DNA of 64,000 bases, from assembly GCA_938015295.1 (NCBI GenBank), contig CALLQB010000003.1, positions 27,640 through 91,639 on the forward strand, read 5' to 3'. This DNA comes from an uncultured Acidimicrobiales bacterium. Lineage in GTDB: Bacteria > Actinomycetota > Acidimicrobiia > Acidimicrobiales > SHLQ01. Of this stretch, positions 20,938-36,327 are shown one piece after another. Position numbers and translations under genes: made by a program. Below the pieces are notes generated by a model. It searched no databases. It was not told the origin of the DNA and was given only the letters and a program-made list of their open reading frames with translations. Position 1 is the stretch's first letter, and every line of letters starts with the position of its first letter.

Positions 20938-22083
20938 TCAGCGAAGCTCAGAAAATGGGACGACGGCAGCCTGCGGGGTGACGATGTCGCCCTCGGGAAG
21001 CACAAACCGCCAGAACGCAATGCCGAGGTTTCGGCCCTCGGTATCAATCCAATTCGGGTGGCCGGGGTCTTGGTGAGCAAGAACCATCTTGAACGTGCCA
21101 TCGGGTTCGAGTGTCGTCTGCTTGCGGTTGAGTCCCACCCGGCGGTTGCGGAAGTCGAGCGTTTGCTGCCAACGCGTCCAAAGGCAGAGATAGCCGGCTC
21201 GACACTCGGGCCACTCGCCGGTAATCACCAACGCTTCGTCGTCGGCGATGTAGTACGGCGCGAGAGAGTAGGCAGCGTCGGCAAAGGAGAGGAAGTGGTC
21301 GCCGGGGGGCTGCGGAGGCGGGAACTCGTTGATCGTCGTTCCGGCGAACCCCGGACGTTCCTTGGTGCCGGGGGCTCCCATCTCGATGGTGCGAGCGCTC
21401 AGGAATTTCGCGACCCGTCGGATTCCCTCGGCGATTGAAGCGTCGTTTGGAGGAGCCGGTGCAGGCTGAGGCTGGGTGGTCTCGATAGACAGGTTCACCG
21501 GAAGATTTTCGTCGCTCGCCGCGTATTCCTCGTTCTCGGAGTAGTGGCGAATGGTGAGGCTTGATGCATTGGGGTCGAGTTCAAGCCAGTTGCGTTCTTG
21601 GGGTTCTCCGCCAACAAAGACTTCGAAATTTCCCTCCGCGTCGATGTCGAGATCGGCATCGCCGATTACCCCGGCGGTACGTTCTGGTGTGCCACCGTCG
21701 GACCCGCCGACTTCGACGGTGACCGACAGGTAGACGCCACCGGCCATGTTGCCGCGCACGACGTAGGAGTACTCGGCTGAGACCGGGGCTTCAAAGTACA
21801 GGGCGTCGGGGTTGTCGCCGGTGAACTTGCGAAACGGCGAGACGATCTTGCGAAACTCTGGTGATGAGGGGTCGCGTTCGAACGCGCTGAACAGCCCGCC
21901 CTGGAGCATGTGCATCATCGACCGGTGCGCGCCGGCGACGTCTTCGGGTGATCCGATCATCCATTCGGCGCTGGCGTATCGCCGGTCGACTTCTTCGAGG
22001 GTGTCGATGAGTTCGCGTAGCGCCGTTCGGCTTTGCGAAGCGATTGCCTCTGGTGCAGCGGTGGTGGTTGGTTCTTCAGCCAT
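20938..22083 (-). CDS. DUF1214-like protein of unknown function (paralog of 13552..14784; assignment tentative)
   Basis: 381 aa. It shares its architecture and segments with the other copy: DDEALVITGEWPEC versus [14 protein letters not shown], and GHPNWIDTEGRNLGIAFWRF versus [20 protein letters not shown]. Confidence 0.55.
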   Translation of the reverse strand: MAEEPTTTAAPEAIASQSRTALRELIDTLEEVDRRYASAEWMIGSPEDVAGAHRSMMHMLQGGLFSAFERDPSSPEFRKIVSPFRKFTGDNPDALYFEAPVSAEYSYVVRGNMAGGVYLSVTVEVGGSDGGTPERTAGVIGDADLDIDAEGNFEVFVGGEPQERNWLELDPNASSLTIRHYSENEEYAASDENLPVNLSIETTQPQPAPAPPNDASIAEGIRRVAKFLSARTIEMGAPGTKERPGFAGTTINEFPPPQPPGDHFLSFADAAYSLAPYYIADDEALVITGEWPECRAGYLCLWTRWQQTLDFRNRRVGLNRKQTTLEPDGTFKMVLAHQDPGHPNWIDTEGRNLGIAFWRFVLPEGDIVTPQAAVVPFSELR

Positions 22084-22085
22084 GG

Positions 22086-23357
22086 CTAGTGCTCCTCAGC
22101 GATGTTGTAGTGCTCGACATAGGCGCCAAACTCGTTTCGGACCTGGTCGGGGTCGAGGCCAAAGCGGTCGAAGGTGTAGTCGTGTTTGCCGAATTTTCCC
22201 TTGGGCTTGTTGGCGAGATAGTCGGTGATGATGTTGTCGTGGCCAGCGGGCCACGTCATGTTGAGTCGGTCGTAAATCGATCTGATCGTGGCCGTTGGGT
22301 TGGCCATCAGCGAGCTGAAATGTGAGTCGACGAATCGTTCGGCTGGCAGGTCGCCGTTTGCCCGTTGGCTCATCAGATGTTCGACCATGAACCGGAAACC
22401 GAGGCTGATCATTTGCCCCTGGGCGACCGGATCGACCTCGTCGCTGCGAATCCATCGCAAAACAGTGGTGGTGCTCGCCGCTGACGCTACCCACTTCAGC
22501 GGGTCACGGTGGGTGTTCACGACGTACGCATCGGGGTATTCGTCGAAGAGTTCTTTCATCGACACAAGGTGTCCAGGAGTTTTAAGGAGCCAGTTTGTCG
22601 AGGTGCGGCCGAGCTGTCGGTCTTGCCACTGCAGGGTTTGCAAGAAACGTCGGTGGTCGCTGTACTGGCGAGCGAGCAGTTCTGGATGTTCCTGGGTGAA
22701 CAGGCCGAACAACGGCGTGTTGTATTGCATGCTCCAGTAGCCGGCGTCGAAGTTCAGCGACATGAAGTGCACACACTCGCAGGGCAGATCGTGGCGTAGT
22801 TCGTGCACGGTCATCAGCTCGGGCTGAATGTCGGCCCAGAACTCGTGTTCGGCCTCGCCCATCGCCATGCGTTCCGCGATGTTGTCGGACGTGGGAAGTT
22901 CGCCCGGAGTGTGGGGGAGCGGATGGCTTGCTTCCCACGACATTGGGGCACGCAGGTTCGGGTCGAGTTCGAGAAGCTCAAGGGTGATCGTGGTGCCTGT
23001 GCGAGGTGGGCCGATGACAAAGATTGGGGCGGCGATCTCCTCGTCGAGGATCTCGGGATGGTCATGCCACGCTTTCACCAGACGGAGACGGGTCTGCAAC
23101 ACACGGATTGCTTCTTGCCGTGCAAGTGTGCGGCCGAGGTGGTGCGCGTTACTTTCGGCGTCGATTGCACGAAGTCGCTGCCGCATGGTCTCGACGTAGA
23201 GGTCGTCGCCGACATTGGTCAGACCGGTCGACGATCTCGCGATGGCGAGTAACTCGTCGGGATCGAGTGACACGCCAGCACCGTCGGTGGCCGCGCCCAG
23301 TGCGTTGAACCGGCGGACCCAATCGGGACGTTCATACAAGCTCGCAACCTCTCCCAT
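22086..23357 (-). CDS. cytosolic-type sulfotransferase family protein
   Basis: ORF track 22086..23393; the start is at 23357 (MGEVASLY) or 23393. It has the PAPS 5-prime-phosphosulfate loop IGPPRTGTT and the 3-prime-phosphate motif HRDPLKWVASAAS. Confidence 0.75.
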   Translation of the reverse strand: MGEVASLYERPDWVRRFNALGAATDGAGVSLDPDELLAIARSSTGLTNVGDDLYVETMRQRLRAIDAESNAHHLGRTLARQEAIRVLQTRLRLVKAWHDHPEILDEEIAAPIFVIGPPRTGTTITLELLELDPNLRAPMSWEASHPLPHTPGELPTSDNIAERMAMGEAEHEFWADIQPELMTVHELRHDLPCECVHFMSLNFDAGYWSMQYNTPLFGLFTQEHPELLARQYSDHRRFLQTLQWQDRQLGRTSTNWLLKTPGHLVSMKELFDEYPDAYVVNTHRDPLKWVASAASTTTVLRWIRSDEVDPVAQGQMISLGFRFMVEHLMSQRANGDLPAERFVDSHFSSLMANPTATIRSIYDRLNMTWPAGHDNIITDYLANKPKGKFGKHDYTFDRFGLDPDQVRNEFGAYVEHYNIAEEH

Positions 23358-23423
23358 GCCGCCAACATAGGGAAGACCGGGAAGACCGGCCAATCATGGG
23401 ACTCTGCGGCTAGTTTCGGTTGC

Positions 23424-24158
23424 ATGGAGATCACAGAACAGATACTCGACACCGTGTCCGATGGCGAACCAATGGCCGTGCTGGTCAAGCAGCCAGCCGA
23501 GGCGGGCACCTACCCGACGATTGCCATCTTTCACGACGGACCCGGAATGCGGCCGGCCACCCACGAGTTTGCGGCGAAGCTGGCCGCCGAGGGGTATTGC
23601 GTTGTTGTACCCGATCTGTACCACCGGCAGGGACGCATGATTGGGTATGAACCTGCTGACTTCGCCAAGGATCCGAAACTCGGCGAGACGATGTGGGGGC
23701 TCATCGTGTCGCTGACCGATGACGGCATCCAGAACGACCTCGACGCAGCGCTCGCTGTCGCCGGTGTCGACACCGCCGCCCCCATGGGCGTGCTCGGGTT
23801 CTGTCTCGGTGCCCGCGCGGTGGTGCGAACCATGACCCGTCTTCCTGACCAATTCATCGCCGGCGCTACCTGGCACCCGTCGTTTCTCGCCGACGACTTA
23901 CCCGATTCGCCGCACCTTACCGCTTCGACGATTTCTGGCGATCTTTACATCGGTATCGGTGATGCCGACAAGATCCAGTCGATCGCTATGCATCAACGGT
24001 TCTTCGACGCTGTTGAACCAATGGCCAATATCGAGGTCGAGGTATTTGAGGGCGCTGACCATGGGTACACCTGGCCCGGATATTCGTCGTACCACGAGGT
24101 TGCAGCCGAAACGAGCTGGACCAAGACAATGGCGCTGCTCGAGCGGACACTCGGGTAG
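23424..24158 (+). CDS. dienelactone hydrolase family protein
   Basis: 244 aa. Motifs: IAIFHDGPGMRP, the nucleophile elbow GFCLGAR (Cys type) and a C-terminal GADHGY. Confidence 0.75.
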   Translation: MEITEQILDTVSDGEPMAVLVKQPAEAGTYPTIAIFHDGPGMRPATHEFAAKLAAEGYCVVVPDLYHRQGRMIGYEPADFAKDPKLGETMWGLIVSLTDDGIQNDLDAALAVAGVDTAAPMGVLGFCLGARAVVRTMTRLPDQFIAGATWHPSFLADDLPDSPHLTASTISGDLYIGIGDADKIQSIAMHQRFFDAVEPMANIEVEVFEGADHGYTWPGYSSYHEVAAETSWTKTMALLERTLG

Positions 24159-24186
24159 GTCGGGCCCCAGCTAAGGTACCCACGTC

Positions 24187-25662
24187 ATGTCTCGCCCCCG
24201 CTTGTCGCAACTCGTTTTGGTCGTGCTGTTGCTGGTCTTGTCGGCCTGTTCGAGTACCGCCGCGCCCCGCGGTGAGAGCGATGATGCCAGTGTCCCAAAC
24301 GCAGAAACGGCCGCCGCCGTGGCTGCGAATACCACTGGTGAGGCATCCAGTACGAACGACGAGACCGCGAGTGAAGCCGAAAGCGAGAGTGCCGACGAGC
24401 CAGCAACGCTCGTGCGGTATGAAGAGGGCGACGCCGACTACATCTTCGACCAAGAAGCGCTACACACCTTCGAATTGTCACTTTCCGAAGACGACCTGGC
24501 GTTTCTCGACGCCGACCCAACCGCCGAGGAGTACGTCGAAGGCAGCCTGAGCTTTGAAGACGAAACCGTCGCGAAGGTTGGCATCCGCTACAAAGGGTCG
24601 ATCGGGGCGTTCGTGAACTGTCTGACCGGCGCAAACCCGCTGCAACCCAGTGGCGCGAAGAAGTGCACCAAACTCTCGATGAAGGTGAAGATCAACTGGG
24701 GCGACAACCCCGACCAGAAGTTTTACGGCCTCAAGAAGCTGCAGCTGCACTCGATGAACTTCGACCAGTCGCAGATGCGCGACCGCCTTGGCTATTACCT
24801 CTTTCGAGAGATGGGGGTTCCCGCTCCGAGGGCGACACACGCCCGAGTGATGATCAATGGCGAATACATCGGTTTGTTTGCGCTCATCGAGCAGATCGAT
24901 GGCCGCTTTACTCGCGAGGCCTTCGACGACGGAACGGGCAATCTCTACAAGGAAGTGTGGCCTGTCGATCTCAACGGCGACGTGATCGACGACGACGGAT
25001 TCCGCAAAGGCCTCAAGACCAACGAAGATGAAGATCCTTCGTTTGAGATTCTTCGTTCGTTCGCCGAGGAAGTCGTCTAGGCTGGTGCCGACGGCGCACC
25101 AGCAGTCGTTGAGAAACGGATGGATCTGGAGGAGATCATTTCCTACGTTGTTGTCGACCGTACGATTCGCCACGACGACGGACCCTTCCACTTCTACTGC
25201 TTCCGGACGCCGTGTTTTAACCACAATTACTACTTCTACGAGCAGCCCACCGATCGAACAGTGCATCTCATTGCCTGGGATCTCGACAACGCGTTTGAAA
25301 ACATCGTGCGCGACGCGAATCCCATCACCCCATTGGCAGATGCGTTCGGCGAGACATCTGGCGACTGTAAACCGGTGCCGTATGGTGCCTTCCAAGTGCC
25401 GCAGATCTCGGCGGCATGCGACCCCATTATTGCCGCGTGGGCCACCTTCGACGACGAGTACGATCGCCTGTTGCAGAAGTTTCTCGACGGCCCCTTCTCC
25501 GAAGACAACGTCAATACGATGCTCGACACTTGGAGTGCCCAGATTGCCGAGGCGACAGCAGAAGCTCACGAAACCCATGCCGGGGCGCTAGCGGTAACCA
25601 CTTGGCAAAGCGCCATCACGAGTTTGCAGGCGGCCCTCGAAGTCGCCCGCGCTGGGCAATAG
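24187..25662 (+). pseudogene. CotH-family atypical protein kinase lipoprotein interrupted by a single in-frame TAG (25078..25080)
   Basis: ORFs 24187..25080 and 25120..25662 are in the same frame with one stop between them (...SFAEEVV*AGADGAPAVVEKRMDLEE...). Together they make one CotH domain: KLQLHSMNFDQSQMRDRLGYYLFREMGVP, INGEYIGLFALIEQIDG, NLYKE, HNYYFYEQP...IAWDLDNAF. The signal peptide has the lipobox LVLSAC. Confidence 0.7.
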
Positions 25663-25704
25663 TCACCTTCAACGAGCAAGCGAAAGTTCGGATCACCACA
25701 AGAA

Positions 25705-26265
25705 ATGTCACAACAACTTCTGATTCTCTGCAACGCCGTTGCGGTACTGCTACTGGTCTTCGGGCTGTACTTTCCGCGGTACCGACGAAAAGACATGGTG
25801 GTGTCGATCCTCGGGATCAACGTAGGCGTGCTCGCTGTGGCCACTGTGTTGTCGAAGGCCGATGTGTCAGCTGGTCTTGGTCTTGGGCTCTTTGGTGTCT
25901 TGTCGATCATCCGGCTGCGGTCACGTGAACTCGACCAGGAAGAGGTCGCGTACTACTTCGCGGCCCTTGCGCTCGGACTCCTCGGTGGGATTGCCGTGCA
26001 GCCCGAGTGGCTCACTCCTGCGCTGATGACAGCGATCGTGGTCGCCCTGTTCATCGGTGGCCATCCGGCGCTCTTCGCCGATGCCCGAAGCCAATCGGTC
26101 ACCCTTGACGCGGCAATTACCGATGAAGATGAGCTCACCGCCCGCCTCGAGGCATTGCTTGGGGGCAGCGTGCAGAAGATAAAGGTGCGGCGAGTCGACC
26201 TGGTCAACGACACCACCGTCGTCGACGTTCGATTCTCACTCGACCGCAAGAGTCGCGGTTCGTGA
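25705..26265 (+). CDS. DUF4956-type small membrane protein
   Basis: 186 aa with 4-5 hydrophobic helices followed by a ~70-aa soluble tail. The segment GLGLGLFGVLSIIRLRS..LDQEEVAYYF matches my memory of DUF4956. The stop overlaps the next start (GTGA at 26262..26265). Confidence 0.65.
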   Translation: MSQQLLILCNAVAVLLLVFGLYFPRYRRKDMVVSILGINVGVLAVATVLSKADVSAGLGLGLFGVLSIIRLRSRELDQEEVAYYFAALALGLLGGIAVQPEWLTPALMTAIVVALFIGGHPALFADARSQSVTLDAAITDEDELTARLEALLGGSVQKIKVRRVDLVNDTTVVDVRFSLDRKSRGS

Positions 26266-27065
26266 CCGGAAAAGACTTCGCACGAGCCGGCGCGTTAGCT
26301 GCGCAGCTTGGTCGACGCGACACCGTATCGCTTGCTGAGCTGAACGAAGTCGCCGAGTTGCAGACCCGCGTCGACCGCAAGTACATCGTCAACGATGCGG
26401 TTGCGCAGAAAATGCTTGCCGATCTTCCGGACAAGATTCGGGTGCTCGAGATCGGGGGCGACCGCTCTTTTTCGTACGAATCGGTGTACTTCGATACAGA
26501 AGATTTCGATCTCTACCTTGCGACCGCCCACCGACGTCGACGCCGGTACAAGGTGCGCACTCGGGTCTACCAGAACTCGGGCACCGCTCGCCTCGAGGTG
26601 AAAACCAAGGGAGGTCGAGGTTTGACCATCAAACAGAGCGTCGCGTATGACCCCGCAGACGCCCGCCGTCTCACCAGCGAGGGACAGGCCTTTGTCGACA
26701 GCGTCGTTGCTCGTGACGGAGCCGCAGCTGTGCTGCGCCCAACGTTGACGACGCAGTACGAACGGGCGACACTGCTCAACGCCGACAACGGTGCACGCCT
26801 CACTATCGACCAAAACCTTGTTTGCACCGATTGGCAGCCGAGCTCGGTTCGCCTCGAAGCGGTCGTGCTCGAGACCAAGTCGCCTGGCAAAGCGAGCGCG
26901 TTCGACCGTTGGTTATGGGTTGAGGGTCACCGCCCCGCCAAGCTGAGCAAGTTCTGTACCGGTCTGGCTGCACTGCACCGCGAGCTTCCCTCGAACAAGT
27001 GGCACCGTACCTTGCGGCGCCACTTTGGCACCCCGACCCATCACGCATCCCAAGGACTTTCATGA
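26262..27065 (+). CDS. VTC-domain (triphosphate tunnel, polyphosphate-polymerase-type) protein
   Basis: 267 aa. It has the alternating charged beta-strand motifs of tunnel metalloenzymes: RVDRKY, SVYFDT, RRYKVRTRVY, ARLEVKTKG, ARLTIDQNL, VVLETKSPG. Confidence 0.75.
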   Translation: MTGKDFARAGALAAQLGRRDTVSLAELNEVAELQTRVDRKYIVNDAVAQKMLADLPDKIRVLEIGGDRSFSYESVYFDTEDFDLYLATAHRRRRRYKVRTRVYQNSGTARLEVKTKGGRGLTIKQSVAYDPADARRLTSEGQAFVDSVVARDGAAAVLRPTLTTQYERATLLNADNGARLTIDQNLVCTDWQPSSVRLEAVVLETKSPGKASAFDRWLWVEGHRPAKLSKFCTGLAALHRELPSNKWHRTLRRHFGTPTHHASQGLS

Positions 27066-27991
27066 CCCTCGTTGTTTTCACCACCTGTAACCCGTGGATT
27101 CAGGAGGTGGTCGACGAGGTAAAACCCGATGGGTTCGACGTCGAATTCGTTGATAGTGACGACGCCGATGCGGTGGCAGAGGCGTTCCCGCGAGCTGACT
27201 TTGTGGTGTGTCTAAAGATGTCAGCCGATCAAGCCCGTTTGCTCGATCGTTGCCGGCTCGTCATGCACAACGGCGTTGGCTACGACGCTATAGCTATCGA
27301 GACCCTTTCGGAGATGAATATTCCGGTGGCGGCCACCCCGGCGATGACTGCTGAGGGAGTCGCCGAGCACGTGTTGATGATGGTGCTTGCCCTGAACAAG
27401 CAACTGCCAGCCGTGCGCGAAAGCATGAGCAGCGGCGAGTGGAATATGTTCGGCTGGCGGCAGGGATCGCACAACCTCGCCGGCAAGACGATGGGAATCG
27501 TCGGTCTGGGCCGCATCGGGACTCGAGTGGCGCATCTGGCCGAGGCCTTCGATTGTCGAGTGCTCTACACCGACATCGAAACCAAGGACAGCCCCTTTGA
27601 ACGGGTCGCCTTCGGTCAGCTATTGGCCGAAGCCGATGTGGTGACGCTGCATGTGCCACTTACCGAATCCACCACGAAGATGGTGGGCACTGCTGAGTTC
27701 GCGCAAATGAAGGCCGGTTCGTTGTTCATCAATGCCAGCCGGGGGCCAACCACCGATCTGGACGCGCTTGTCGCAGCAATAACGTCTGGGCATCTCCGCG
27801 GGGCAGGTGTCGATGTCTTCGACCCAGAGCCGCCACCGAGCGATCATCCGGTTCTGCAGCTGCCGAATGTGATCTGCACGCCGCACATCGCAAGTGGCAC
27901 CGTCGAACGGCAGTACGCGATCAACACCGATCAATTCGCGAACTGTCTTCGTGTGCTGGCTGGTCAACCGGCGCACGATCTGATCAGCTAG
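27062..27991 (+). CDS. D-isomer-specific 2-hydroxyacid dehydrogenase (phosphoglycerate dehydrogenase-like)
   Basis: ORF track 26999..27991 trimmed to MTLVVFTT; the ATG overlaps the VTC stop (ATGA). Motifs: NAD motif GIVGLGRIGTRVA, NASRG, and TPHIAS. Confidence 0.9.
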   Translation: MTLVVFTTCNPWIQEVVDEVKPDGFDVEFVDSDDADAVAEAFPRADFVVCLKMSADQARLLDRCRLVMHNGVGYDAIAIETLSEMNIPVAATPAMTAEGVAEHVLMMVLALNKQLPAVRESMSSGEWNMFGWRQGSHNLAGKTMGIVGLGRIGTRVAHLAEAFDCRVLYTDIETKDSPFERVAFGQLLAEADVVTLHVPLTESTTKMVGTAEFAQMKAGSLFINASRGPTTDLDALVAAITSGHLRGAGVDVFDPEPPPSDHPVLQLPNVICTPHIASGTVERQYAINTDQFANCLRVLAGQPAHDLIS

Positions 27992-28029
27992 GGCAACGAA
28001 GCAGGTAACGCTACGGCACGGAGATCTCC

Positions 28030-28791
28030 ATGGGGCAGTCAGCAAACACCGATCAGTTAGTACACACTGATCAGTTAGCAAAGAAGGTGATTCTCATCAC
28101 GGGAGCAGCCCGGGGCCAAGGGGCCGCCGAGGCCAGGCAGGCTGCCGAACGTGGCGCGACGGTGGTCGTCACGGATGTGTTGGACGACGCGGGTACGGCC
28201 GTTGCGAAGGAGGTGGGCGGGCAGTACCACCGCCTCGACGTGACATCGAGCGGCGAATGGCGCTCGGTGATGGAGGACGTGGTGGCCACCCATGGCCGTC
28301 TCGACGGGCTGGTGAACAATGCTGGCATCTTCCGCCACGACAGCATTCTTGACGGCAACGAGGACAACTTTCGACTCATTACCGAGATCAACCAGTACGG
28401 CGTGTTCAACGGCATGGCCGCCGCCGCCCACATCATGAAAGATCAGGGGGCAGGCAGCATTGTCAATATTTCGTCGGTGGCCGGTATGCGTGGCCAGCGC
28501 GCAGTTGCCTACGTCGCAAGCAAGTGGGCTGTTCGCGGAATGACCAAGAGTGCAGCGTCGCAGCTGGCTCGCTACAACGTTCGCGTGAACTCGGTGCACC
28601 CCGGTGCAATCGAGACCGACATGTTGTTCGACTTGGGCACCGAGACTATCGACCGCCTGGTAGGGGCTACCCCGATGGGTCGATCAGCAAAACCCGAAGA
28701 GGTCGGCAATGTCGTGATGTTCTTGCTGTCCGACGAATCGAGTTACGTGACCGGAGCCGAGATAGTGGTGGACGGAGCACTGATCGCCTAA
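28030..28791 (+). CDS. short-chain dehydrogenase/reductase (SDR)
   Basis: Motifs: ILITGAARGQGAA, NNAG, and the triad S...YVASKWAVRG. The N-terminus carries an 18-nt duplication. An alternative in-frame GTG lies at 28087. Confidence 0.9.
   Translation: MGQSANTDQLVHTDQLAKKVILITGAARGQGAAEARQAAERGATVVVTDVLDDAGTAVAKEVGGQYHRLDVTSSGEWRSVMEDVVATHGRLDGLVNNAGIFRHDSILDGNEDNFRLITEINQYGVFNGMAAAAHIMKDQGAGSIVNISSVAGMRGQRAVAYVASKWAVRGMTKSAASQLARYNVRVNSVHPGAIETDMLFDLGTETIDRLVGATPMGRSAKPEEVGNVVMFLLSDESSYVTGAEIVVDGALIA
28047..28080 (+). repeat. imperfect 18-nt tandem duplication (CACCGATCAGTTAGTA / CACTGATCAGTTAGCA)
   Basis: Read directly. As coding sequence it gives TDQLVH-TDQLAK. Each unit contains a GATCAG/CTGATCAG palindromic core. 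Confidence 0.7.
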
Positions 28792-29651
28792 TGGAGCTCG
28801 TTGACCGGTTGGAAGCAACCGACCAGATTCGACAACTGAAAGCCCGCTACTGGCGATGTGTCGACACGCAGAACTGGTCGGATATGGCGACGGTGCTCGA
28901 TGCTGCTGTTGCGGTTGACCTCACCGACGCTGGAGGCGGAACGTACACCTCTGCCGAAGCGTTCATCACGGCGATGACGAAGGGGCTTCGGGGCGCAGTT
29001 TCGTCGCACCAGGGCGGAGGCGCCGAGATCAACATCGTGAGCGGCACTGAGGCCGTCGGCACCTGGGCGTTCACCGACCACATCGAATACCCAAACCGGA
29101 TCCTCGACGGCGCCGGCCGCTATGACGAGACCTATCGAAACACCGCCGATGGGTGGCGCATCGCGTCGACGCGTCTGACCCGACACTGGGTGAACGTGAC
29201 GCGCCCGGGCGCCGAGAAGGCCGTCGCCGATCTCCTCTATCAGTACGCCCGCAAGATTGACCGCGGCGACTACGCAGGTGTCGCCGCGCTATTTACCCAC
29301 GGCCGCATTGCCTATGAGGTCGATGCTCCGGTCGATCAGCAAATCGTTGGCGCCGACGCAGTGCTCGCCAGCTATCAGAGCACGACACGGTTGTACGACG
29401 ATGGCACGCCCAAGTCGAAACATGTCACGACCAACGTTGCTATCGAGGTCGACCATGTTGCGGGTTCTGCGACCGCCCACAGCTATTACACCGTGCTGCA
29501 ACAGACCGCAGATCTTGCGCTGCAGCCGATCATCGCAGGCGAATACTTTGATTCGTTTCATATCGTCGACGGCACCTGGTGGTTCGATACTCGAATCATC
29601 GGGGTCAACCAGCTCGGCGACCTCAGTCATCACCTGCTTTTTGACCTTTAG
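28791..29651 (+). CDS. tandem SnoaL-like (NTF2-fold) domain protein
   Basis: ORF track 28524..29651 trimmed to MELVDRLEATDQIRQLKARYWRCVD; the start shares 1 nt with the SDR stop (TAATG). Two repeats have the same pattern: I..L...Y....D......A..F, ending in DGWRI and DGTWWF. Confidence 0.6.
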   Translation: MELVDRLEATDQIRQLKARYWRCVDTQNWSDMATVLDAAVAVDLTDAGGGTYTSAEAFITAMTKGLRGAVSSHQGGGAEINIVSGTEAVGTWAFTDHIEYPNRILDGAGRYDETYRNTADGWRIASTRLTRHWVNVTRPGAEKAVADLLYQYARKIDRGDYAGVAALFTHGRIAYEVDAPVDQQIVGADAVLASYQSTTRLYDDGTPKSKHVTTNVAIEVDHVAGSATAHSYYTVLQQTADLALQPIIAGEYFDSFHIVDGTWWFDTRIIGVNQLGDLSHHLLFDL

Positions 29652-29732
29652 GGTCTGATCTTGAACTAGGCCGCCTGTCATCTTTATTGTCGGCGGGCTA
29701 AAGAAACGGTTCGGTGTCGTCGATTCAACGGT

Positions 29733-32486
29733 GTGCAGATACGACCCATCGCCGAACTTGCGGACGCCGAGTTCGGAGAACCCGAAGCGGTGGCAGGGGG
29801 ATCTGATGACGAACACACGCTTTCGGCCACGCGCGAGCTGCACACACGGTTTCTGATCGCGTTGTTGGCGATTGCAGCAATGGTGCTCTCGGGACAGCTG
29901 GTGCTGCAGTCGGTGGTTCGCTCTCAGGCGGACGCCAACGAGGTCGTTCTTGTCATCGATTGGCAGTTGTGGCAGTCAGAACGGCTGCTGGTTGAGGTGC
30001 AACGGTTTGGGCTGTGGGAGCCGGGCGATCCACGTCTACCGACCTATGACCTTCAGCGTGCACTGACCGAATACCGATCGAACCACGAAGAGTTCCTTCG
30101 GGTCCATCCCAAACATGCGTACGACGACGGCAACTTTGAGCGGGCGTATGAAAAAACAGTTGAGACTGCCGTCGCCATCACGACGCTCGGAATTTCGAAC
30201 GAATGGCCCGATCTGACGCGCGAGCAACGTGCCGAAGCGATTGACAACCATGAGCAAGAACGCGACGACTATCTGGCTCTCCTGCAAAACCTCCATACGA
30301 ACCACTCGGCCGAGAACGGCAGGCGGTCGGCGCAACTCCAGGCGGCTGGACTTCTCACCTTGGCGGCCGTTCTTCTGTCGTTGTTGCTGATCGGTCGCTT
30401 CGTGTTTGCTCCTGCAGTTGCTCGGGTGCAGACAGCCATGCGTGCATTGCATCGACGCGAGCAGGAGCTCGTCGTCGCTACCGAACGGTCACGCGATGCC
30501 AGCCGCGCCAAGAGCGAGTTCGTAGCCAATATGAGCCACGAGTTGCGCACGCCCATGAACGGTGTCGTCGGCATGACCAGCCTGCTCAGCGAGACCACGC
30601 TCAACGACGACCAACGCACGATGATCGATACGATCCGGTTGTCGAGCGATCAGTTGCTCAGCGTCATCAACGATGTTCTCGACTTCTCCAAAATTGAGGC
30701 GAGAAAACTCGACCTCGAAACGTACCCCTTTGATCTGCGTTCACAGGTTGAAGAGTCGCTGGAAGTGGTGGCATCTCTGGCAGCTGAGAAACGGCTTTCG
30801 CTTGCCCTCGACGTCGACGCTGATCTGCCGGAAATATTCGTCGGAGATGCCGGACGAATACGTCAGATTTTGAACAACCTGGTCTCGAACGCCATCAAGT
30901 TCACCCCTGAGGGTGAGATTGTGGTCACCGTATCCGGCAGACGGATCGGCGATATCGACGATTCGCGAGGCGCTTCATCAGAGCACAACATCGACCACTC
31001 GGGCGCCGAGGACCAAAGTGGCGTCTGGCGCCTCTTCTTCGATGTTGCCGACAGCGGCATCGGTATTCCGGCCGACCGGCTCCCGTTGCTGTTCAACTCA
31101 TTTAGCCAGGTGGACGGCAGCACAGCACGAAAGTTCGGTGGAACAGGACTGGGTCTGGCCATTAGCAAGCAGCTGGCCGAGCTAATGAACGGTACAGCGT
31201 GGGCTGAGAGTACCGAAGGCTCCGGTTCGACGTTCTCGTTCTGCGTCGAGTTGCAATCCGAACGTGACACGACAGCTCCGTTCTTCTCGGCCGCGCATGC
31301 CGATTTCGCAGGGACGTACATCGTTATCGCCGACCCCAACGAGCGCGCGGCCGAGATCGTGGCGCAGCAACTGACGACCTGGGGATCAAAGGTCGTGTGC
31401 GTCGAGTCTGCAGCGGGCTTGCGGTCGGCACTAGACGCGAGACCAGCCGATGTCGTGATTATCGACGACAGCTTGGCGGATTCGTGCGTGGTCGATGGAC
31501 AACCCACCGTTGTGATGGCGCCGCTAGGAAGACGGATGGTTCTCACCGACCGCGACTCGATCTTCAACTATGTGAGCAAGCCGGTGAAGCCCGCGAAACT
31601 CTTTGACCTGCTCATCCTCGAATTGAACGGCGAAGCCCGAAAAGTTGCGGTCGGCAAGATCGAGCCGAACGAGCCCGGCAGGGCACGTCCCCTTCGAATT
31701 CTTCTTGCCGAGGACAACCGAGTGAACCAGCAGGTCGCGCTAGGACTTTTGGGCAACCTCGGCTACACCGCCGATGTGGTCGCCAACGGTCTCGAGGTGC
31801 TTGAAGCGTTTGCCAAGCGCCCCTACGACGTCGTACTGATGGATATCCAAATGCCAGAGATGGACGGCCAGGAGGCCACCACACGAATACGGGCCGACCT
31901 TCCTCCGGAGGATCAGCCGTGGATTATCGCAATGACAGCGAACGCCCTGAGCGGTGATCGAGAAAGGTTCCTGGCCGGCGGCATGAATGACTACGTGAGT
32001 AAACCTGTCCAACCGAGGCGTCTGGCGGACGCACTCCGGAGCGTTCCCGCCACGGGTGTGCAGGACGTTTCCGCTACCGAAGCGGCTCCGGTGTCCGACA
32101 TCGGCCGCGCCGAGGATTCTGCGACGACCGCTGTGCCAGTGTTCGACCGCTCGGTACTCGATGAACTTTCTGAGGCCATGGGTGACGCTGGTTCTGCCCT
32201 CGTTGGCGAGTTACTCGATGTCTTTCTCGACGATGCGCCCAAGCGGCTCGCTTCGATCGATGCGGCGACCCTTGCCGACGATGTCGAGGTCGTGCAGCGT
32301 GAAGCCCACACGCTGAAGTCTTCGGCGGCCTCAGTGGGCGCCTTAGCGATGAGTGAGGTGGCGAAGACGATCGAACACGCGTTGAAAGCCGGCAACTCGT
32401 TGCACGATGTCGAGGACGACGTGGCAAGTTTGCACCGCCTTTCCGTCGAAACGTTTGCTGCGCTTCGGATGACAAAAGCGGCGTGA
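29733..32486 (+). CDS. hybrid sensor histidine kinase (2 TM + HisKA + HATPase_c + degenerate receiver-like region + receiver + Hpt)
   Basis: Motifs: H-box [16 protein letters not shown]-box [10 protein letters not shown]-boxes DSGIGI and [10 protein letters not shown]. The receiver is [13 protein letters not shown]...[13 protein letters not shown]...KP. The Hpt segment is [17 protein letters not shown] helices flank a ~160-aa outside domain. Confidence 0.9.
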
Positions 32487-32523
32487 TCTTGCTCGTCTGC
32501 CAGTCGGGCGATACAACAACGTT

Positions 32524-33924
32524 GTGCGTGACTACTCTCTGGCCTCGGCCGCCGACGCTCAAGCGGTAGCGAACGGCTTAGCCGACGCCGAGTGGTACCG
32601 CTCGCCGATCAGCCCCGACCGTCTGCAATCGCTGAGTGTGCGCACAAACGGGCGGGCCGCGATCGACCTTTTGCTGTACGTCGCGCTGCTAGTCGGTAGT
32701 GCAGTTCTGCTCTACTGGTCGCTGTGGTCGTGGTGGACGCTGCCGGCAGCGTTTGTCTACGGCACGTTGTACGGAAGTTCGTCGGACCCGAGGTGGCATG
32801 AGTGCGGCCATGGGACGGCCTTTCGCTCGTCGGTGCTCAACAACCTGGTGTACTTTCCGGCGTCGTTTATGTTGCTGAGAGAAGCAACGCTCTGGCGCTG
32901 GTCGCATGTGCGTCACCACAGCGACACGATCGTTGTCGGCCGAGATCCGGAGATCATCTTGGCTCGACCCCCGCAACTCGGCGACTGGCTACCGAATCTG
33001 ATTGGTCTGAAGGCGGGCACGTTCATGATGCGGCGCACGGTTCGCCACGCCACCGGAAACATCTCGGCCGCCGACGAGTCCTACCTGCCTGAGCACGCGA
33101 AACCCTTGGTGGTAAGAGAAGCGCGGATGACGGTGACGATCTGGCTCGCGGTGCTGGCCGGATGTCTCGTGCTGGGGAGCGCTGTGCCGTTGCTATTTGT
33201 GATTGGCCCATCGTTCTATGGCGCCTGGCTGATGTTGGTGCTGGGCACGACGCAGCATCTCGGACTTCGTGAGGACGTGCTCGATCACCGTCAGAACACC
33301 CGCACGATCTATCTCAATCCGGTGCTGAGGTTTCTTTATCTGAACATGAACTACCACGCAGAACATCACATGTTCCCGCAGGTTCCGTACCACGCACTAC
33401 CGCGACTGCACCGTGAGATACAGCACGACATGCCGACACCGTTGCCATCGCTGATCGCCGCGTACCGGGAGGTCGTTCCGGCGTTGCGTCGGCAGCATAC
33501 GGACCCGTCATGGGAAATCCCGAGAGAGATCCCTGTTGCTAGTGCAGCGAGCGGCGGCGCCGGCGCAAGCAGCGATACCGCTCAACCTCGCTCGGTCGGC
33601 GGTGGAGCATTCGATGTGGGCGACGACCAGTCGGTGCGACCAGGACACGTGGTGCGAGTCGATATCGGTGATCGCACGTTTGCGCTCTACCGGGTCGGTC
33701 GCGACATCTTTGCGACCGATGGGATCTGCACCCATAGCCGCAGCGTGCATCTGGCAACGGGCACAGTGGTCGGCGACCAGATCGAATGCCCCAAGCACAA
33801 CGGCAGATTCGATATTGCCTCTGGCGAACCCCGTCGGGCGCCGGTGTGCGAAGCGCTGGGCACCTATCGCGTTGTCGTTGTAGACGGACGTCTCGTGCTT
33901 GAGGCCGGCCTCAAGCACCCATGA
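32524..33924 (+). CDS. membrane fatty-acid-desaturase-family protein fused to a C-terminal Rieske [2Fe-2S] domain
   Basis: The His boxes are HECGH, HVRHH and HAEHH, with intervening TM helices. The C-terminal ~110 aa carry C-T-H-x17-C-P-K-H (GICTHSRSVHLATGTVVGDQIECPKHNGRF). Confidence 0.85.
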   Translation: MRDYSLASAADAQAVANGLADAEWYRSPISPDRLQSLSVRTNGRAAIDLLLYVALLVGSAVLLYWSLWSWWTLPAAFVYGTLYGSSSDPRWHECGHGTAFRSSVLNNLVYFPASFMLLREATLWRWSHVRHHSDTIVVGRDPEIILARPPQLGDWLPNLIGLKAGTFMMRRTVRHATGNISAADESYLPEHAKPLVVREARMTVTIWLAVLAGCLVLGSAVPLLFVIGPSFYGAWLMLVLGTTQHLGLREDVLDHRQNTRTIYLNPVLRFLYLNMNYHAEHHMFPQVPYHALPRLHREIQHDMPTPLPSLIAAYREVVPALRRQHTDPSWEIPREIPVASAASGGAGASSDTAQPRSVGGGAFDVGDDQSVRPGHVVRVDIGDRTFALYRVGRDIFATDGICTHSRSVHLATGTVVGDQIECPKHNGRFDIASGEPRRAPVCEALGTYRVVVVDGRLVLEAGLKHP

Positions 33925-33974
33925 GCCAATGATGTACCGGTAACCTTACGTACTTCTTAGGAGATGTCCGAGCT

Positions 33975-35057
33975 ATGAAAGCCGCAGTGCTACGAGAGGT
34001 TGGAATTCCGCTCGCAATCGAGTCGGTCGACGTCGATTCGCCTCAGGCTTATGAGGTGTTGATCCGGACGGTGGCCGCGGGGGTCTGCCATTCCGATCTG
34101 CACTTTGTCGAGGGGCACTACCACACCGACTTGCCGGTTGTGCCAGGGCATGAGTCGGCTGGTGTGGTCGCAGCGGTCGGCGATCGGGTGACGTACGTGC
34201 AACCGGGCGATCACGTCATTACCTGCATGTCGGTGTTCTGCGGCCACTGCAACGTGTGTACCTCCGGCCGCCCGTACCTGTGCGAGAGCCCGGAAACTCG
34301 ACGAACGAGCGGCAGCCGGCTGCTGCAAAACGGGGCACCGATGGGGCAGCTTTATGAGCTGTCGTCCTACGCCGAGATGATGCTCGTACACGAACGAGCG
34401 GTCGTGAAGATCCGACCCGACATGCCACTCGATCGAGCAGCGCTCATCGGGTGTGCCGTTATGACCGGCTTCGGCGCGGTGGTCAACACCGCTCGGGTCG
34501 AGGTTGGCGCATCGGTCGCTGTCCTTGGTTGCGGCGGCATTGGACTGTCGGCTATCAACGGCGCAGACATCACCGGTGCAGGCCAAGTCATCGCGGTCGA
34601 CGTGTTGCCAGAGAAACTTGCTATGGCCAAACGTTTCGGCGCGACCCACATCGTTGATGCAAACGGCCTCAGCGACGAAGAGGTCGTCGACGCGGTGCGG
34701 CAGCTTACTGGCGGGGGAGTCGACTACTCCTTTGAGGCGATCGGCCTCAAGCGCACCTCTGAGCAGGCGTTTAACATGCTGCGCCCGGGAGGCGATGCGA
34801 CGATCATCGGCATGGTTCCCGAAGGGCAGAAGATAGAGATCGAGGCTGCCGACCTCCTCTACGAAAAGACTCTTCAAGGGTCGAATATGGGATCGAACCG
34901 GTTCCGTACCGACATGCCCCGACTCATCGAGTTCTACCTCGACGGCAAGCTTCACCTCGACGAGCTCATCTCCAAGCGGGTCGGTCTCGAAAAGATCAAT
35001 GAGGCGTTCGCCGATATGTTGAGCGGAAACGTCGCCCGAACGGTCATCGAGTTCTAG
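33975..35057 (+). CDS. zinc-dependent alcohol dehydrogenase (MDR family)
   Basis: Motifs: GVCHSDLH, GHESAGVVAAVG, CGHCNVCTSG, and Rossmann VAVLGCGGIG. Confidence 0.85.
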   Translation: MKAAVLREVGIPLAIESVDVDSPQAYEVLIRTVAAGVCHSDLHFVEGHYHTDLPVVPGHESAGVVAAVGDRVTYVQPGDHVITCMSVFCGHCNVCTSGRPYLCESPETRRTSGSRLLQNGAPMGQLYELSSYAEMMLVHERAVVKIRPDMPLDRAALIGCAVMTGFGAVVNTARVEVGASVAVLGCGGIGLSAINGADITGAGQVIAVDVLPEKLAMAKRFGATHIVDANGLSDEEVVDAVRQLTGGGVDYSFEAIGLKRTSEQAFNMLRPGGDATIIGMVPEGQKIEIEAADLLYEKTLQGSNMGSNRFRTDMPRLIEFYLDGKLHLDELISKRVGLEKINEAFADMLSGNVARTVIEF

Positions 35058-35166
35058 CCGACGCCCTAGAGCGGCGATCGAATCTGGCGGAAATCGTGTG
35101 CGGCAGCCTACGTTTAAGGAAAGAAATCACGAACCACCACTTTCGCTGAGCAGGAGAACAACCCCA

Positions 35167-36327
35167 ATGGGTGAGGCATACATCGTCGACGCAGTCCGGA
35201 CCCCGGTAGGCAAACGAGGAGGCTCGTTTGCCGAAGTGCACCCCGCCGACATGGGGGCGCACGCAATCAGCGCACTGATGGACCGCACCGGCATCGATCC
35301 TGAAGCTGTCGAAGATGTGATCTTCGGCTGCCTCGACAACCTTGGGCCACAGGCTGGCGATATCGCTCGTACCTGTTGGTTAGCTGCCGGACTGCCACAA
35401 ACCGTCCCAGGCGTCACCATCGACCGGCAGTGCGGCTCAGGCCAACAGGCAGTCCATTTCGCTTCGACTGGCGTCATGGCTGGCGTCAACGATGTGATGG
35501 TCGCTGGCGGCGTGCAGAACATGTCGATGATTCCGATCGGCGCGGCGTTGACTGCAGCCGAGTCAGTCGGCCTCGACATGCCCGACCCGTTCACCACGTC
35601 GACCGGCTGGGTCGAGCGGTACGGAACACAAGAAGTTTCGCAATTCCGTGGAGCCGAACTCATCGCCGAAAAGTGGGACATCACCCGCGACCACATGGAG
35701 GCGTTCGCCTTCGAGTCGCACGAGCGTGCAATCACCGCAATCGACGAAGGTCGGTTCGAAAACGAGATCGTGGCATACGGCGACATGGTCAACGATGAAG
35801 GGCCACGCCGAGGTGGAAGCCTCGAAAAGATGGCGCAACTCAACCCGCTCGTCGAGGGCGGACGAATCACCGCAGCGATGGCGAGCCAACTTTCTGATGG
35901 CGCTGCGGCGTTGTTGGTGTGCTCAGAACAGGCGCTGAAGGATCACAACCTGACCCCGAGAGCTCGTATCCATCACCTCAGCGTGCGTGGCGATGACCCC
36001 ATCTTTATGCTGACCGGACCGATTGAAGCTACGCGATACGCGATGGAAAAGACCGGTATGTCGATTGACGATATCGACCTGTTCGAGTGCAACGAAGCCT
36101 TTGCTCCCGTTCCGCTTGCCTGGATGCACGAACACAACATTCCGCACGAAAAGGTCAACGTAAACGGCGGCGCAATCGCGCTCGGTCATCCTCTCGGATG
36201 CACCGGCGCACGCCTGATGACCACGCTTCTCAACGAACTTGAGCGCACCGGTGGCCGCTACGGCCTCCAGACCATGTGTGAAGGTGGCGGCCAGGCAAAC
36301 GTGACGATTATCGAGGTACTGAAGTAG
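35167..36327 (+). CDS. acetyl-CoA C-acyltransferase (thiolase)
   Basis: ORF track 35098..36327 trimmed to MGEAYIVDAVRTPVGKRGG. Motifs: the active-site Cys region RQCGSGQQAV, NVNGGAIALGHPLGCTGAR, and CEGGGQANV. Confidence 0.9.
   Translation: MGEAYIVDAVRTPVGKRGGSFAEVHPADMGAHAISALMDRTGIDPEAVEDVIFGCLDNLGPQAGDIARTCWLAAGLPQTVPGVTIDRQCGSGQQAVHFASTGVMAGVNDVMVAGGVQNMSMIPIGAALTAAESVGLDMPDPFTTSTGWVERYGTQEVSQFRGAELIAEKWDITRDHMEAFAFESHERAITAIDEGRFENEIVAYGDMVNDEGPRRGGSLEKMAQLNPLVEGGRITAAMASQLSDGAAALLVCSEQALKDHNLTPRARIHHLSVRGDDPIFMLTGPIEATRYAMEKTGMSIDDIDLFECNEAFAPVPLAWMHEHNIPHEKVNVNGGAIALGHPLGCTGARLMTTLLNELERTGGRYGLQTMCEGGGQANVTIIEVLK

Follow-up and report, generated by a model that had tools for sequence, protein, structure and literature searches.

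To our knowledge, secreted CotH-type kinases are common in bacteria, and there is no supply of ATP outside the cytoplasmic membrane. How such a kinase could be energized is the question raised by a three-gene locus in DNA from an uncultured Acidimicrobiales bacterium, which lies within the 64,000-nucleotide stretch of contig CALLQB010000003.1 that was analyzed here as a whole (hereafter the window). The genes encode a CotH-family kinase, a small DUF4956 membrane protein and a VTC tunnel-domain protein, and they are contiguous on one strand at 24187–27065, with a 42-nt gap after the first gene and a 4-nt overlap between the second and third. An earlier note on this DNA had described them as an uncharacterized module at the head of a six-gene operon, in which the VTC and DUF4956 proteins were hypothesized to supply a phospho-donor to the kinase. 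Its three family assignments all hold in Pfam, and a scan of NCBIfam added nothing specific for any of the three proteins.

The gene set itself was already on record. Whitfield et al. (2020) reported that cotH, DUF4956, DUF4832 and a gene for a polyphosphate polymerase make up a conserved set of accessory genes, found directly beside pelDEADAFG in streptococci and clostridia and as a variant in bifidobacteria (PMC7112168). In Streptococcus intermedius, deletion of the DUF4956 gene (SIR_1592) raised Pel and deletion of the CotH gene (SIR_1594) lowered it, each reducing aggregation in artificial sputum medium by more than half, and no change in Pel or aggregation was reported for the VTC deletion (SIR_1593; PMC12345266). 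The earlier note was thus right that the mechanism is unsolved and wrong that the set was unknown, since it is published (PMC7112168) together with deletion phenotypes (PMC12345266). We conclude that the window trio belongs to this published, mechanistically unsolved set, standing alone here in marine Acidimicrobiia without pel genes. The S. intermedius authors stated that the synteny of the trio is not found outside pel loci (PMC12345266). Contrary to that statement, dozens of actinobacterial and Chloroflexota species in our survey carry the trio as a free-standing set.

Conservation of a DUF4956-VTC core with an exchangeable partner

To survey the module, we scanned a DUF4956 alignment against one genome per GTDB species. 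This yielded at least 596 confirmed loci, of which the best 80 were analyzed. These loci derive from Acidimicrobiia, Streptomyces, Actinoplanes, Saccharothrix, Micromonospora, Microbispora, Cryobacterium and Thermomicrobiales/Chloroflexia. Each was annotated with local hidden Markov models built from the homologs found, the CotH model being iterated, and the calls were checked against Pfam. A VTC gene lay directly downstream of DUF4956 at 78 of the 80 loci, and a 4-nt NTGA overlap joined the DUF4956 stop to the VTC start at 64 of the 77 loci evaluated. CotH adjoined the pair at 52/80 loci, where chance adjacency is roughly estimated at well below one locus in 80, and a Cthe_2159-family protein (PF14262) adjoined it at 22/80. 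One or the other partner was adjacent at 73 loci and both at a single locus; of the seven loci with neither, four end at a contig edge and two lack VTC.

Because VTC accompanies DUF4956 almost without exception but the partner is either CotH or a Cthe_2159-family protein, the unit is best described as a two-gene core whose partner can change. Indeed, DUF4956 and VTC form an obligate, translationally coupled core, and the third member is an exchangeable extracytoplasmic protein. The survey also supports CotH, DUF4956 and VTC as a real conserved functional module. The co-occurrence on which the earlier note had staked its module was decisively borne out, and the GTGA coupling that it had pointed to between DUF4956 and VTC recurs across species as the NTGA overlap. 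Many CotH homologs have lipobox-like N-termini, and a lipobox or signal sequence was found on CotH and Cthe_2159 partners alike, as called by a crude signal-peptide detection that under-calls the Ala-rich signals of actinobacteria.

The CotH partners fall into three subfamilies. Subfamily 1, the type found in the window, occurs at 17 loci, upstream and on the same strand. Subfamily 2 (24 loci; Pfam E ~1e-32) is either divergent upstream or downstream of VTC. Subfamily 3 (11 loci) is located downstream, in a set of flanking proteins that also match CHB_HEX_C_1 and Fn3_assoc. Partner type tracks the tree of the DUF4956+VTC pair, requiring 13 parsimony changes versus ~44 for shuffled labels. All subfamily-1 pairs, the window's included, form one clade, and there are a few switches between CotH and Cthe_2159 in the tree. 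Additionally, two look-ups centered on VTC in abundant marine lineages again returned CotH-DUF4956-VTC, one of them with two CotH genes and a gene for a YHYH protein.

Several features of individual loci were recorded alongside the survey. At many subfamily-2 loci (L013, L016, L020, L039, L055 and others; for example L016, 4353–7794, minus strand), CotH is followed by an OmpR-type regulator (~230 aa) and a HAMP-HisKA kinase (~455 aa), and this operon is divergent from DUF4956-VTC. Both two-component proteins fell below the curated cut-off for every specific two-component system. At L084 (8423–10969), VTC and a subfamily-2 CotH share one stop-free frame with a hydrophobic segment between them, which may be either a natural fusion of VTC, transmembrane segment and CotH or, in GC-rich DNA, two neighboring genes that fall into one frame by chance. 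The loci with a Cthe_2159-family partner (L017, L034, L035, L040, L042, L052, L056, L057, L063–L076, L080 and L086) come from Streptomyces, Actinoplanes, Cryobacterium and others. Proteins flanking the pairs without a subfamily-1 or subfamily-2 CotH include FG-GAP proteins, CBM2, pectate lyases and the products of GH53, GH11 and GH9 genes; the presence of CBM2, pectate lyases and these glycoside hydrolases points to a plant cell-wall context for the Cthe_2159-type loci.

The window's CotH also has relatives that stand without the pair. The closest outside the actinobacteria (58–61% identity; L001–L004 and L091–L094) are solo genes in Bacteroidota-like contexts, with Por_Secre_tail genes, peptidase S41 and GH113 as neighbors. 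These contexts suggest that the window's CotH subfamily has been exchanged horizontally among marine bacteria.

The VTC protein as a predicted Vtc4-like tunnel enzyme

The protein encoded by the third gene of the trio is a VTC domain alone, with no SPX domain and no fused Vtc1-type membrane domain, and it contains no hydrophobic segment (maximum hydropathy 0.78). All six motifs that had been picked out of its translation earlier (RVDRKY, YFDT, RYKVRTRVY, RLEVKTK, RLTID and VLETK) are present. The only PDB matches to a profile of 26 homologs were the yeast proteins Vtc4, Vtc2 and Vtc3; the profile was needed, as a single-sequence search of the PDB returned no match. An AlphaFold2 (AF2) model was confident, with a predicted local distance difference test score (pLDDT) of 90.4 and a predicted template-modeling score (pTM) of 0.86. 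In a Foldseek search with this model, the top 13 hits were Vtc4, Vtc2 and Vtc3 (E 4e-12 to 1.5e-9, template-modeling score ~0.6), the Vtc4 structures being the best (E 4e-12 to 1e-10); YgiF from E. coli and further triphosphatases or CYTH proteins came lower (ranks 14–32).

The HMMER alignment with Vtc4 pairs K40 of the window protein with K200, R99 and R101 with R264 and R266, E112 and K114 with E279 and K281, and K227, S229 and K230 with K455, S457 and K458. With the exception of K227, each of these residues is invariant in the 26-sequence alignment. The Vtc4 structure paper of Hothorn et al. 2009 is said to place the mapped residues along the catalytic tunnel, where they matter for polymerase activity. 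Judged by its profile matches and model, the protein is predicted to be a soluble Vtc4-like tunnel enzyme that retains the mapped tunnel residues and has putative polymerase activity.

The DUF4956 protein and a possible regulatory role

DUF4956 is the most conserved of the three proteins, with 63–81% identity across Acidimicrobiia. An AF2 model of moderate quality (pLDDT 76) contains five helices followed by a C-terminal beta-alpha-beta-beta domain; the five helices, also predicted by hydropathy, agree with the small protein of four to five transmembrane segments anticipated in the earlier note. Its helices include an invariant GLGLGLFGVLSIIRLRS helix, and the third is formed by a glycine-rich GLGLGLFGVLSII stretch that is likewise invariant. 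The positive-inside rule makes it likely that the basic loops FPRYRRKD and IIRLRS-ELDQEE and the C-terminal domain are cytoplasmic. The last ~55–60 residues weakly resemble ACT regulatory domains in a structure search of the PDB. The DUF4956 family comprises ~2,000 clusters at 50% identity, and among 150 family representatives the long members carry DUF4956 as the sole recognizable domain, except for one with a transposase-associated domain.

The membrane topology and ACT-like domain bear on the main rival to an export function, a regulatory role for the pair. According to this explanation, DUF4956 would be an MgtC-like regulator whose ACT-like domain senses a metabolite, and VTC would make or hydrolyze a cytoplasmic (poly/tri)phosphate that serves as signal or store. 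The pair would thereby tune an envelope or exopolysaccharide process, with the secreted partner acting independently and drawing on another phosphoryl source. The S. intermedius authors described their DUF4956 homolog as an MgtC-type transmembrane domain joined to an ACT domain (PMC12345266), and MgtC/SapB regulators do share this reported architecture, in which several transmembrane helices lead into a small ACT-like domain on the cytoplasmic side. The weakly ACT-like C-terminus of our model, the silent VTC deletion together with the opposite effects of the DUF4956 and CotH deletions on Pel, and the OmpR-type regulator and HAMP sensor kinase co-transcribed with CotH at many subfamily-2 loci also favor regulation, as does the fact that the other tunnel-fold enzymes found by Foldseek are triphosphatases.

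However, no MgtC match for DUF4956 was obtained in an HMMER scan of Pfam even at E<=10, where the families listed were DUF4956, CGL160_C, DUF6050, DUF4191 and YiaAB. MgtC/SapB proteins thus differ from DUF4956 in having no sequence relationship to it that HMMER can detect, and there is no solved MgtC membrane domain for comparison; MgtC is also not paired with a tunnel enzyme. Furthermore, the best matches of the VTC protein are to the polymerase Vtc4, not to hydrolases, and its polymerase residues are invariant. Regulation would also leave unexplained why a secreted partner stands beside 73 of the 80 pairs and why, where one partner has been lost, a different secreted protein always takes its place. 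We regard the regulatory explanation as unlikely on balance, while treating it as the main rival.

The CotH gene and its premature stop

PF08757 matches the CotH gene in two pieces (E=8e-22 over profile positions 2–109 and E=3e-17 over positions 162–312). The family assignment made earlier for 24187–25662 therefore stands, but its description as a single open reading frame does not, a TAG codon at 25078–25080 having been overlooked. This codon (E298*) divides the frame into 297 and 193 codons, where an intact copy would encode 491 aa, and it differs from the glutamate codon by a single G>T change (GAG to TAG). An intact public protein of 491 aa (P0001) is 99% identical to the window CotH and has Glu at the position of the stop; besides the stop, the two differ by only three substitutions, all within an N-terminal low-complexity linker. 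Likewise, all three metagenomic contigs with 98.9–99.9% identical DNA (L087, L088 and L089) have GAG at the equivalent position.

TAG ends 11 of the 47 genes in the window, the DLH gene and CotH itself among them. No suppressor tRNA was found within the window, where the sole tRNA is a tRNA-Val. We therefore read the TAG in CotH as a true stop, and readthrough or recoding of this codon was ruled out on the same two grounds. Both the catalytic loop (DDGP...HNYYFY) and the metal-binding motif (WDLDNAF) lie downstream of the stop, so that the kinase is predicted to be inactive as written. Unless the base call is wrong, the kinase arm in this genome would be dead. The stop appears to be either a very recent change or a base-calling or consensus error.

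These data raise the possibility that the module is decaying in the window genome, the nonsense mutation inactivating CotH and perhaps lowering downstream expression, so that the locus is a recent remnant containing a pseudogene. The GAG or Glu in the three near-identical contigs and in P0001, the position of the stop ahead of both catalytic motifs, and the regular use of TAG as a stop in a window without a suppressor tRNA are all consistent with decay. Against it, the lesion is a single base change without other damage, the remainder of CotH matching its intact homolog save for the three linker substitutions, and both other genes of the trio are intact. It is equally possible that the stop reflects an error in sequencing or assembly, or that the metagenome-derived consensus picked up a minority variant. 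We consider decay a real possibility that falls short of being the expected explanation.

Across subfamily 1, the motif with the candidate nucleotide-binding Lys (RYKGS), DDGP...HNYYFY and WDLDNAF are conserved in 22 of 22 sequences. The window CotH matches Bacillus cereus CotH (5JD9) with E=1.3e-10 over ~190 residues. In B. subtilis CotH, the catalytic Asp is D228 and the metal-binding Asp is D251 (PMC7821199); their equivalents were placed in the DDGP and WDLDNAF motifs indirectly, only through the 23-residue spacing in the 5JD9 alignment. Subfamily-1 proteins also have two invariant Cys residues that flank an insertion of variable length between DDG and HNY (25150–25300 in the window, residues ~322–345). 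The insertion spans ~6 residues in the shortest homologs, 9–10 in the window and ~30 in the longest, and it probably forms a disulfide-stapled loop in the catalytic cleft. As claimed earlier, a lipobox (LSAC) is present at residues 18–21, and the placement of CotH outside the membrane is supported as a prediction by this lipoprotein signal. Because the lipobox and the two conserved Cys fit such a location, CotH is predicted to be an extracytoplasmic lipoprotein.

Relationship to known systems

The closest known counterpart is the pel accessory set, in which the same three Pfam families are contiguous, namely a secreted CotH, a DUF4956 protein with four to five transmembrane segments and a cytoplasmic ACT-like domain, and a soluble VTC protein. 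The window differs from it in having no pel genes within 10 kb and no fourth gene for DUF4832 or a diguanylate cyclase/phosphodiesterase. It also comes from another phylum (Acidimicrobiia), and its CotH is a truncated lipoprotein of another subfamily that lacks an FN3 domain. A related arrangement occurs in the NELoc-2 locus of Clostridium perfringens, where VTC-domain genes are each paired with a gene for a membrane protein of ~225 aa ('tubulin-FtsZ-like') next to a 497-aa CotH (PMC2879425). Here too, a pair of VTC and a cytoplasmic-membrane protein adjoins CotH, the membrane protein being a possible counterpart of DUF4956. Unlike the window, however, the C. perfringens pair is present in two copies around a resolvase within a pathogenicity locus, and its neighbors are chitin-related and cell-wall genes.

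The yeast VTC complex (PDB 3G3Q/3G3R, 7YTJ, 8I6V) shares with the window protein the tunnel fold and the mapped residues K200, R264, R266, K281, K455, S457 and K458. It also combines the enzyme with a membrane protein, suggesting synthesis that is coupled to membrane transit. In contrast to the yeast enzyme, the window VTC has no SPX domain and is not fused to a membrane domain, and its membrane partner DUF4956 is unrelated to the three-helix domain of the Vtc1 type. The target is the vacuole in yeast and would be the cell exterior for DUF4956+VTC. Finally, Bacillus CotH (PDB 5JD9/5JDA) is only distantly related to the window CotH but shares the PF08757 fold, and RYKGS, DG...HNY and WDxD are kept in the intact homolog of the window protein. 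Whereas Bacillus CotH works in the mother cell with ATP, the window CotH has a lipoprotein signal and a probable disulfide Cys pair and would act outside the membrane; it also has the insertion of 9–10 residues, flanked by Cys, in its catalytic loop.

A model for delivery of a polyanion to the cell surface

Our leading interpretation, which we hold tentatively and at somewhat less than an even chance, is that the locus represents a three-part envelope module of wide distribution whose core makes a polyanion and delivers polymer or energy to the outer partner. In this model, the docking site for VTC on DUF4956 would be the conserved cytoplasmic loops together with the ACT-like domain, and VTC would build a phosphate polymer using a nucleoside triphosphate. 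Either the growing polyanion or the energy of its phosphoanhydride bonds would then reach the outer membrane face by way of a DUF4956 oligomer, passing through it or along it, and the inside-negative membrane potential would assist this transfer. Export of a polyanion down such a potential would be energetically reasonable. Outside, the tethered partner would bind the polyanion or use it to modify a surface protein or polysaccharide. Export of polyphosphate to a surface partner by DUF4956+VTC is plausible. The recurrence of the core with a secreted partner in the survey, the Vtc4-like fold and mapped residues of VTC, the basic loops of DUF4956 and the altered Pel level and aggregation upon deletion of the DUF4956 and CotH homologs in S. 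intermedius (PMC12345266) speak for the model.

The nature of the exchangeable partner affects which version of the model is preferred. Cthe_2159 has been described as a beta-helix protein resembling PL9 and able to bind cellulose as well as polygalacturonate (PMC6712302). Because this alternative partner is a polyanion-binding beta-helix, a picture of surface polyphosphate fits better than a strict donor for a kinase. The earlier proposal of a phospho-donor for the CotH kinase therefore needs to be changed, as it does not account for the non-kinase Cthe_2159 at 22/80 loci, for solo CotH genes or for the silent VTC deletion. The most specific form of the model is that DUF4956+VTC is a bacterial polyphosphate synthase-translocase, with CotH using polyphosphate instead of ATP and Cthe_2159 binding or processing surface polyanion. 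We judge that full version to be improbable.

A number of observations weigh against delivery of a polyanion by the core. The S. intermedius deletions, silent for VTC and opposite in their effect on Pel for DUF4956 and CotH (PMC12345266), disfavor a simple linear pathway. CotH homologs of ~60% identity lack DUF4956+VTC in five of seven distinct neighborhoods and have the pair in two. Since Cthe_2159 is not a kinase, donation to a kinase cannot be the whole story, and in the window CotH is truncated while DUF4956 and VTC are intact. For the enzyme, three further Vtc4 residues (E426, R361 and R373) could be paired with VTC E204, R168 and R179 by motif order only, without significant alignment, and a biochemical activity of any bacterial VTC-domain protein was not found in the literature searched. 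For the membrane protein, a comparison with PDB structures gave nothing significant (best E=0.012) and no relative among solved channels, and DUF4956 has no homology to the yeast Vtc1-type membrane domain. Lastly, there were no DUF4956-VTC fusions among the longer members of 150 family representatives.

Gene neighborhood and operon boundary

The features of the locus are collected in Table 1. The GTGA, ATGA and TAATG junctions reported earlier are all present, and Pfam agrees with the earlier naming of the three genes downstream of VTC as a 2-hydroxyacid dehydrogenase, an SDR and a double SnoaL protein. The claim that CotH heads a six-gene operon was not upheld: a DLH gene on the same strand ends 28 nt upstream of CotH, and the same-strand run extends from 23424 to 36327, continuing after SnoaL with a hybrid histidine kinase, a desaturase-Rieske protein, an ADH and a thiolase. 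Because this run spans DLH to thiolase, the six-gene boundary is arbitrary.

Table 1. Features of the CotH-DUF4956-VTC locus, in window coordinates
Feature	Position	Strand	Basis
DLH-family hydrolase	23424–24158	+	PF01738
CotH-family kinase lipoprotein gene, subfamily 1, in-frame stop inside	24187–25662	+	PF08757
Lipobox L-S-A-C, residues 18–21, ending the hydrophobic signal sequence	24238–24249	+	translation
Premature TAG (E298*) in CotH	25078–25080	+	translation; GAG in near-identical contigs
DUF4956 membrane protein, 186 aa	25705–26265	+	PF16316, E=7e-58
GTGA overlap, DUF4956 stop / VTC start	26262–26265	+	sequence
VTC / triphosphate-tunnel protein, predicted soluble and Vtc4-like, 267 aa	26262–27065	+	PF09359, E=4e-27, full profile
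ATGA overlap, VTC / 2-hydroxyacid dehydrogenase	27062–27065	+	sequence
D-2-hydroxyacid dehydrogenase (2-Hacid_dh)	27062–27991	+	PF02826/PF00389
SDR	28030–28791	+	PF13561/PF00106
TAATG junction, SDR / SnoaL_4 gene	28789–28793	+	sequence
Double SnoaL_4 protein	28791–29651	+	PF13577

We also considered whether the trio, the 2-hydroxyacid dehydrogenase, the SDR and SnoaL act as one functional pathway. The ATGA and TAATG overlaps and the short gaps would suit such a unit, and no plus-strand terminator-like site was detected in 23300–29900, so that co-transcription is possible. A scan for sigma-70 promoters returned no sites, a result that says little in a high-GC actinobacterium. In the same order, the three downstream genes also come after CotH-DUF4956-VTC in L087, a 99.86% identical contig of the same lineage. 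However, against the 80 other species the three proteins had two, three and no matches, respectively, none of them at an equivalent position, and the nearest other relatives with the trio (L005, L006 and L095–L100) carry different downstream genes. The real extent of the same-strand run likewise argues against a unit of six. A single six-gene pathway is therefore largely refuted by the lack of conservation, and we give it hardly any credence. The earlier link of these redox and NTF2-type genes to the trio is kept only in the L087 lineage and at none of the loci from the 80 other species, and the dehydrogenase, SDR and SnoaL genes are lineage-specific passengers that do not belong to the conserved module. 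Retention of the upstream DLH gene with the trio was similarly not found in the 80 other species outside the window's own lineage.

No Pel or other exopolysaccharide-synthesis genes were present within 10 kb on either side of the trio. The ten nearest genes outside the stretch from DLH to SnoaL encode BipA, a DEAD helicase, an MR_MLE protein, an ADH, a protein of unknown family, a sulfotransferase, the hybrid histidine kinase, the desaturase-Rieske protein, an ADH and a thiolase. A role in anti-phage defense was rejected, with no PADLOC match for the CotH, DUF4956 or VTC protein.

Some of these neighbors have features of their own. The hybrid histidine kinase (29733–32486; HisKA-HATPase-REC-Hpt, 917 aa) begins 81 nt after SnoaL on the same strand and is also present in L087; no cognate response regulator was identified nearby. 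The gene at 32524–33924 encodes a fatty-acid desaturase with a C-terminal Rieske [2Fe-2S] domain (466 aa), an uncommon fusion with its electron donor built in. On the minus strand at 20938–23393, just upstream of DLH-CotH, are a Sulfotransfer_3 gene and a gene for a 381-aa protein that has no Pfam match and is 26% identical to a DUF1214 protein. Genes of both types recur beside a CotH/CotH/YHYH/DUF4956/VTC cluster in another lineage (L098–L100, 7651–9979), and L005 has a sulfotransferase at the contig edge. The two genes could be a further associated function, perhaps sulfation of a surface polymer, or mere shared synteny.

Significance

The gene set is not new, the window copy is damaged and the six-gene extension fails; the mechanism is nevertheless directly testable. 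The survey corrects the published statement that confined the trio to pel loci, and viewing it as a core of two genes whose partner can be exchanged shows which pair to reconstitute first. Among genomic leads on how secreted CotH kinases are energized, the association of DUF4956+VTC with a secreted partner is the most concrete. If the pair does make and export polyphosphate, it would constitute a new bacterial polyphosphate pathway, the third beside PPK1 and PPK2, and the first bacterial route to extrude the polymer across the cytoplasmic membrane. Surface or extracellular polyphosphate would thereby be explained. Such a pathway would additionally offer a handle on modification of the Pel biofilm matrix in streptococci and clostridia, and on the interaction of Streptomyces and Actinoplanes with plant cell walls, where the partner is encoded among pectate lyase, CBM2 and glycoside hydrolase genes.

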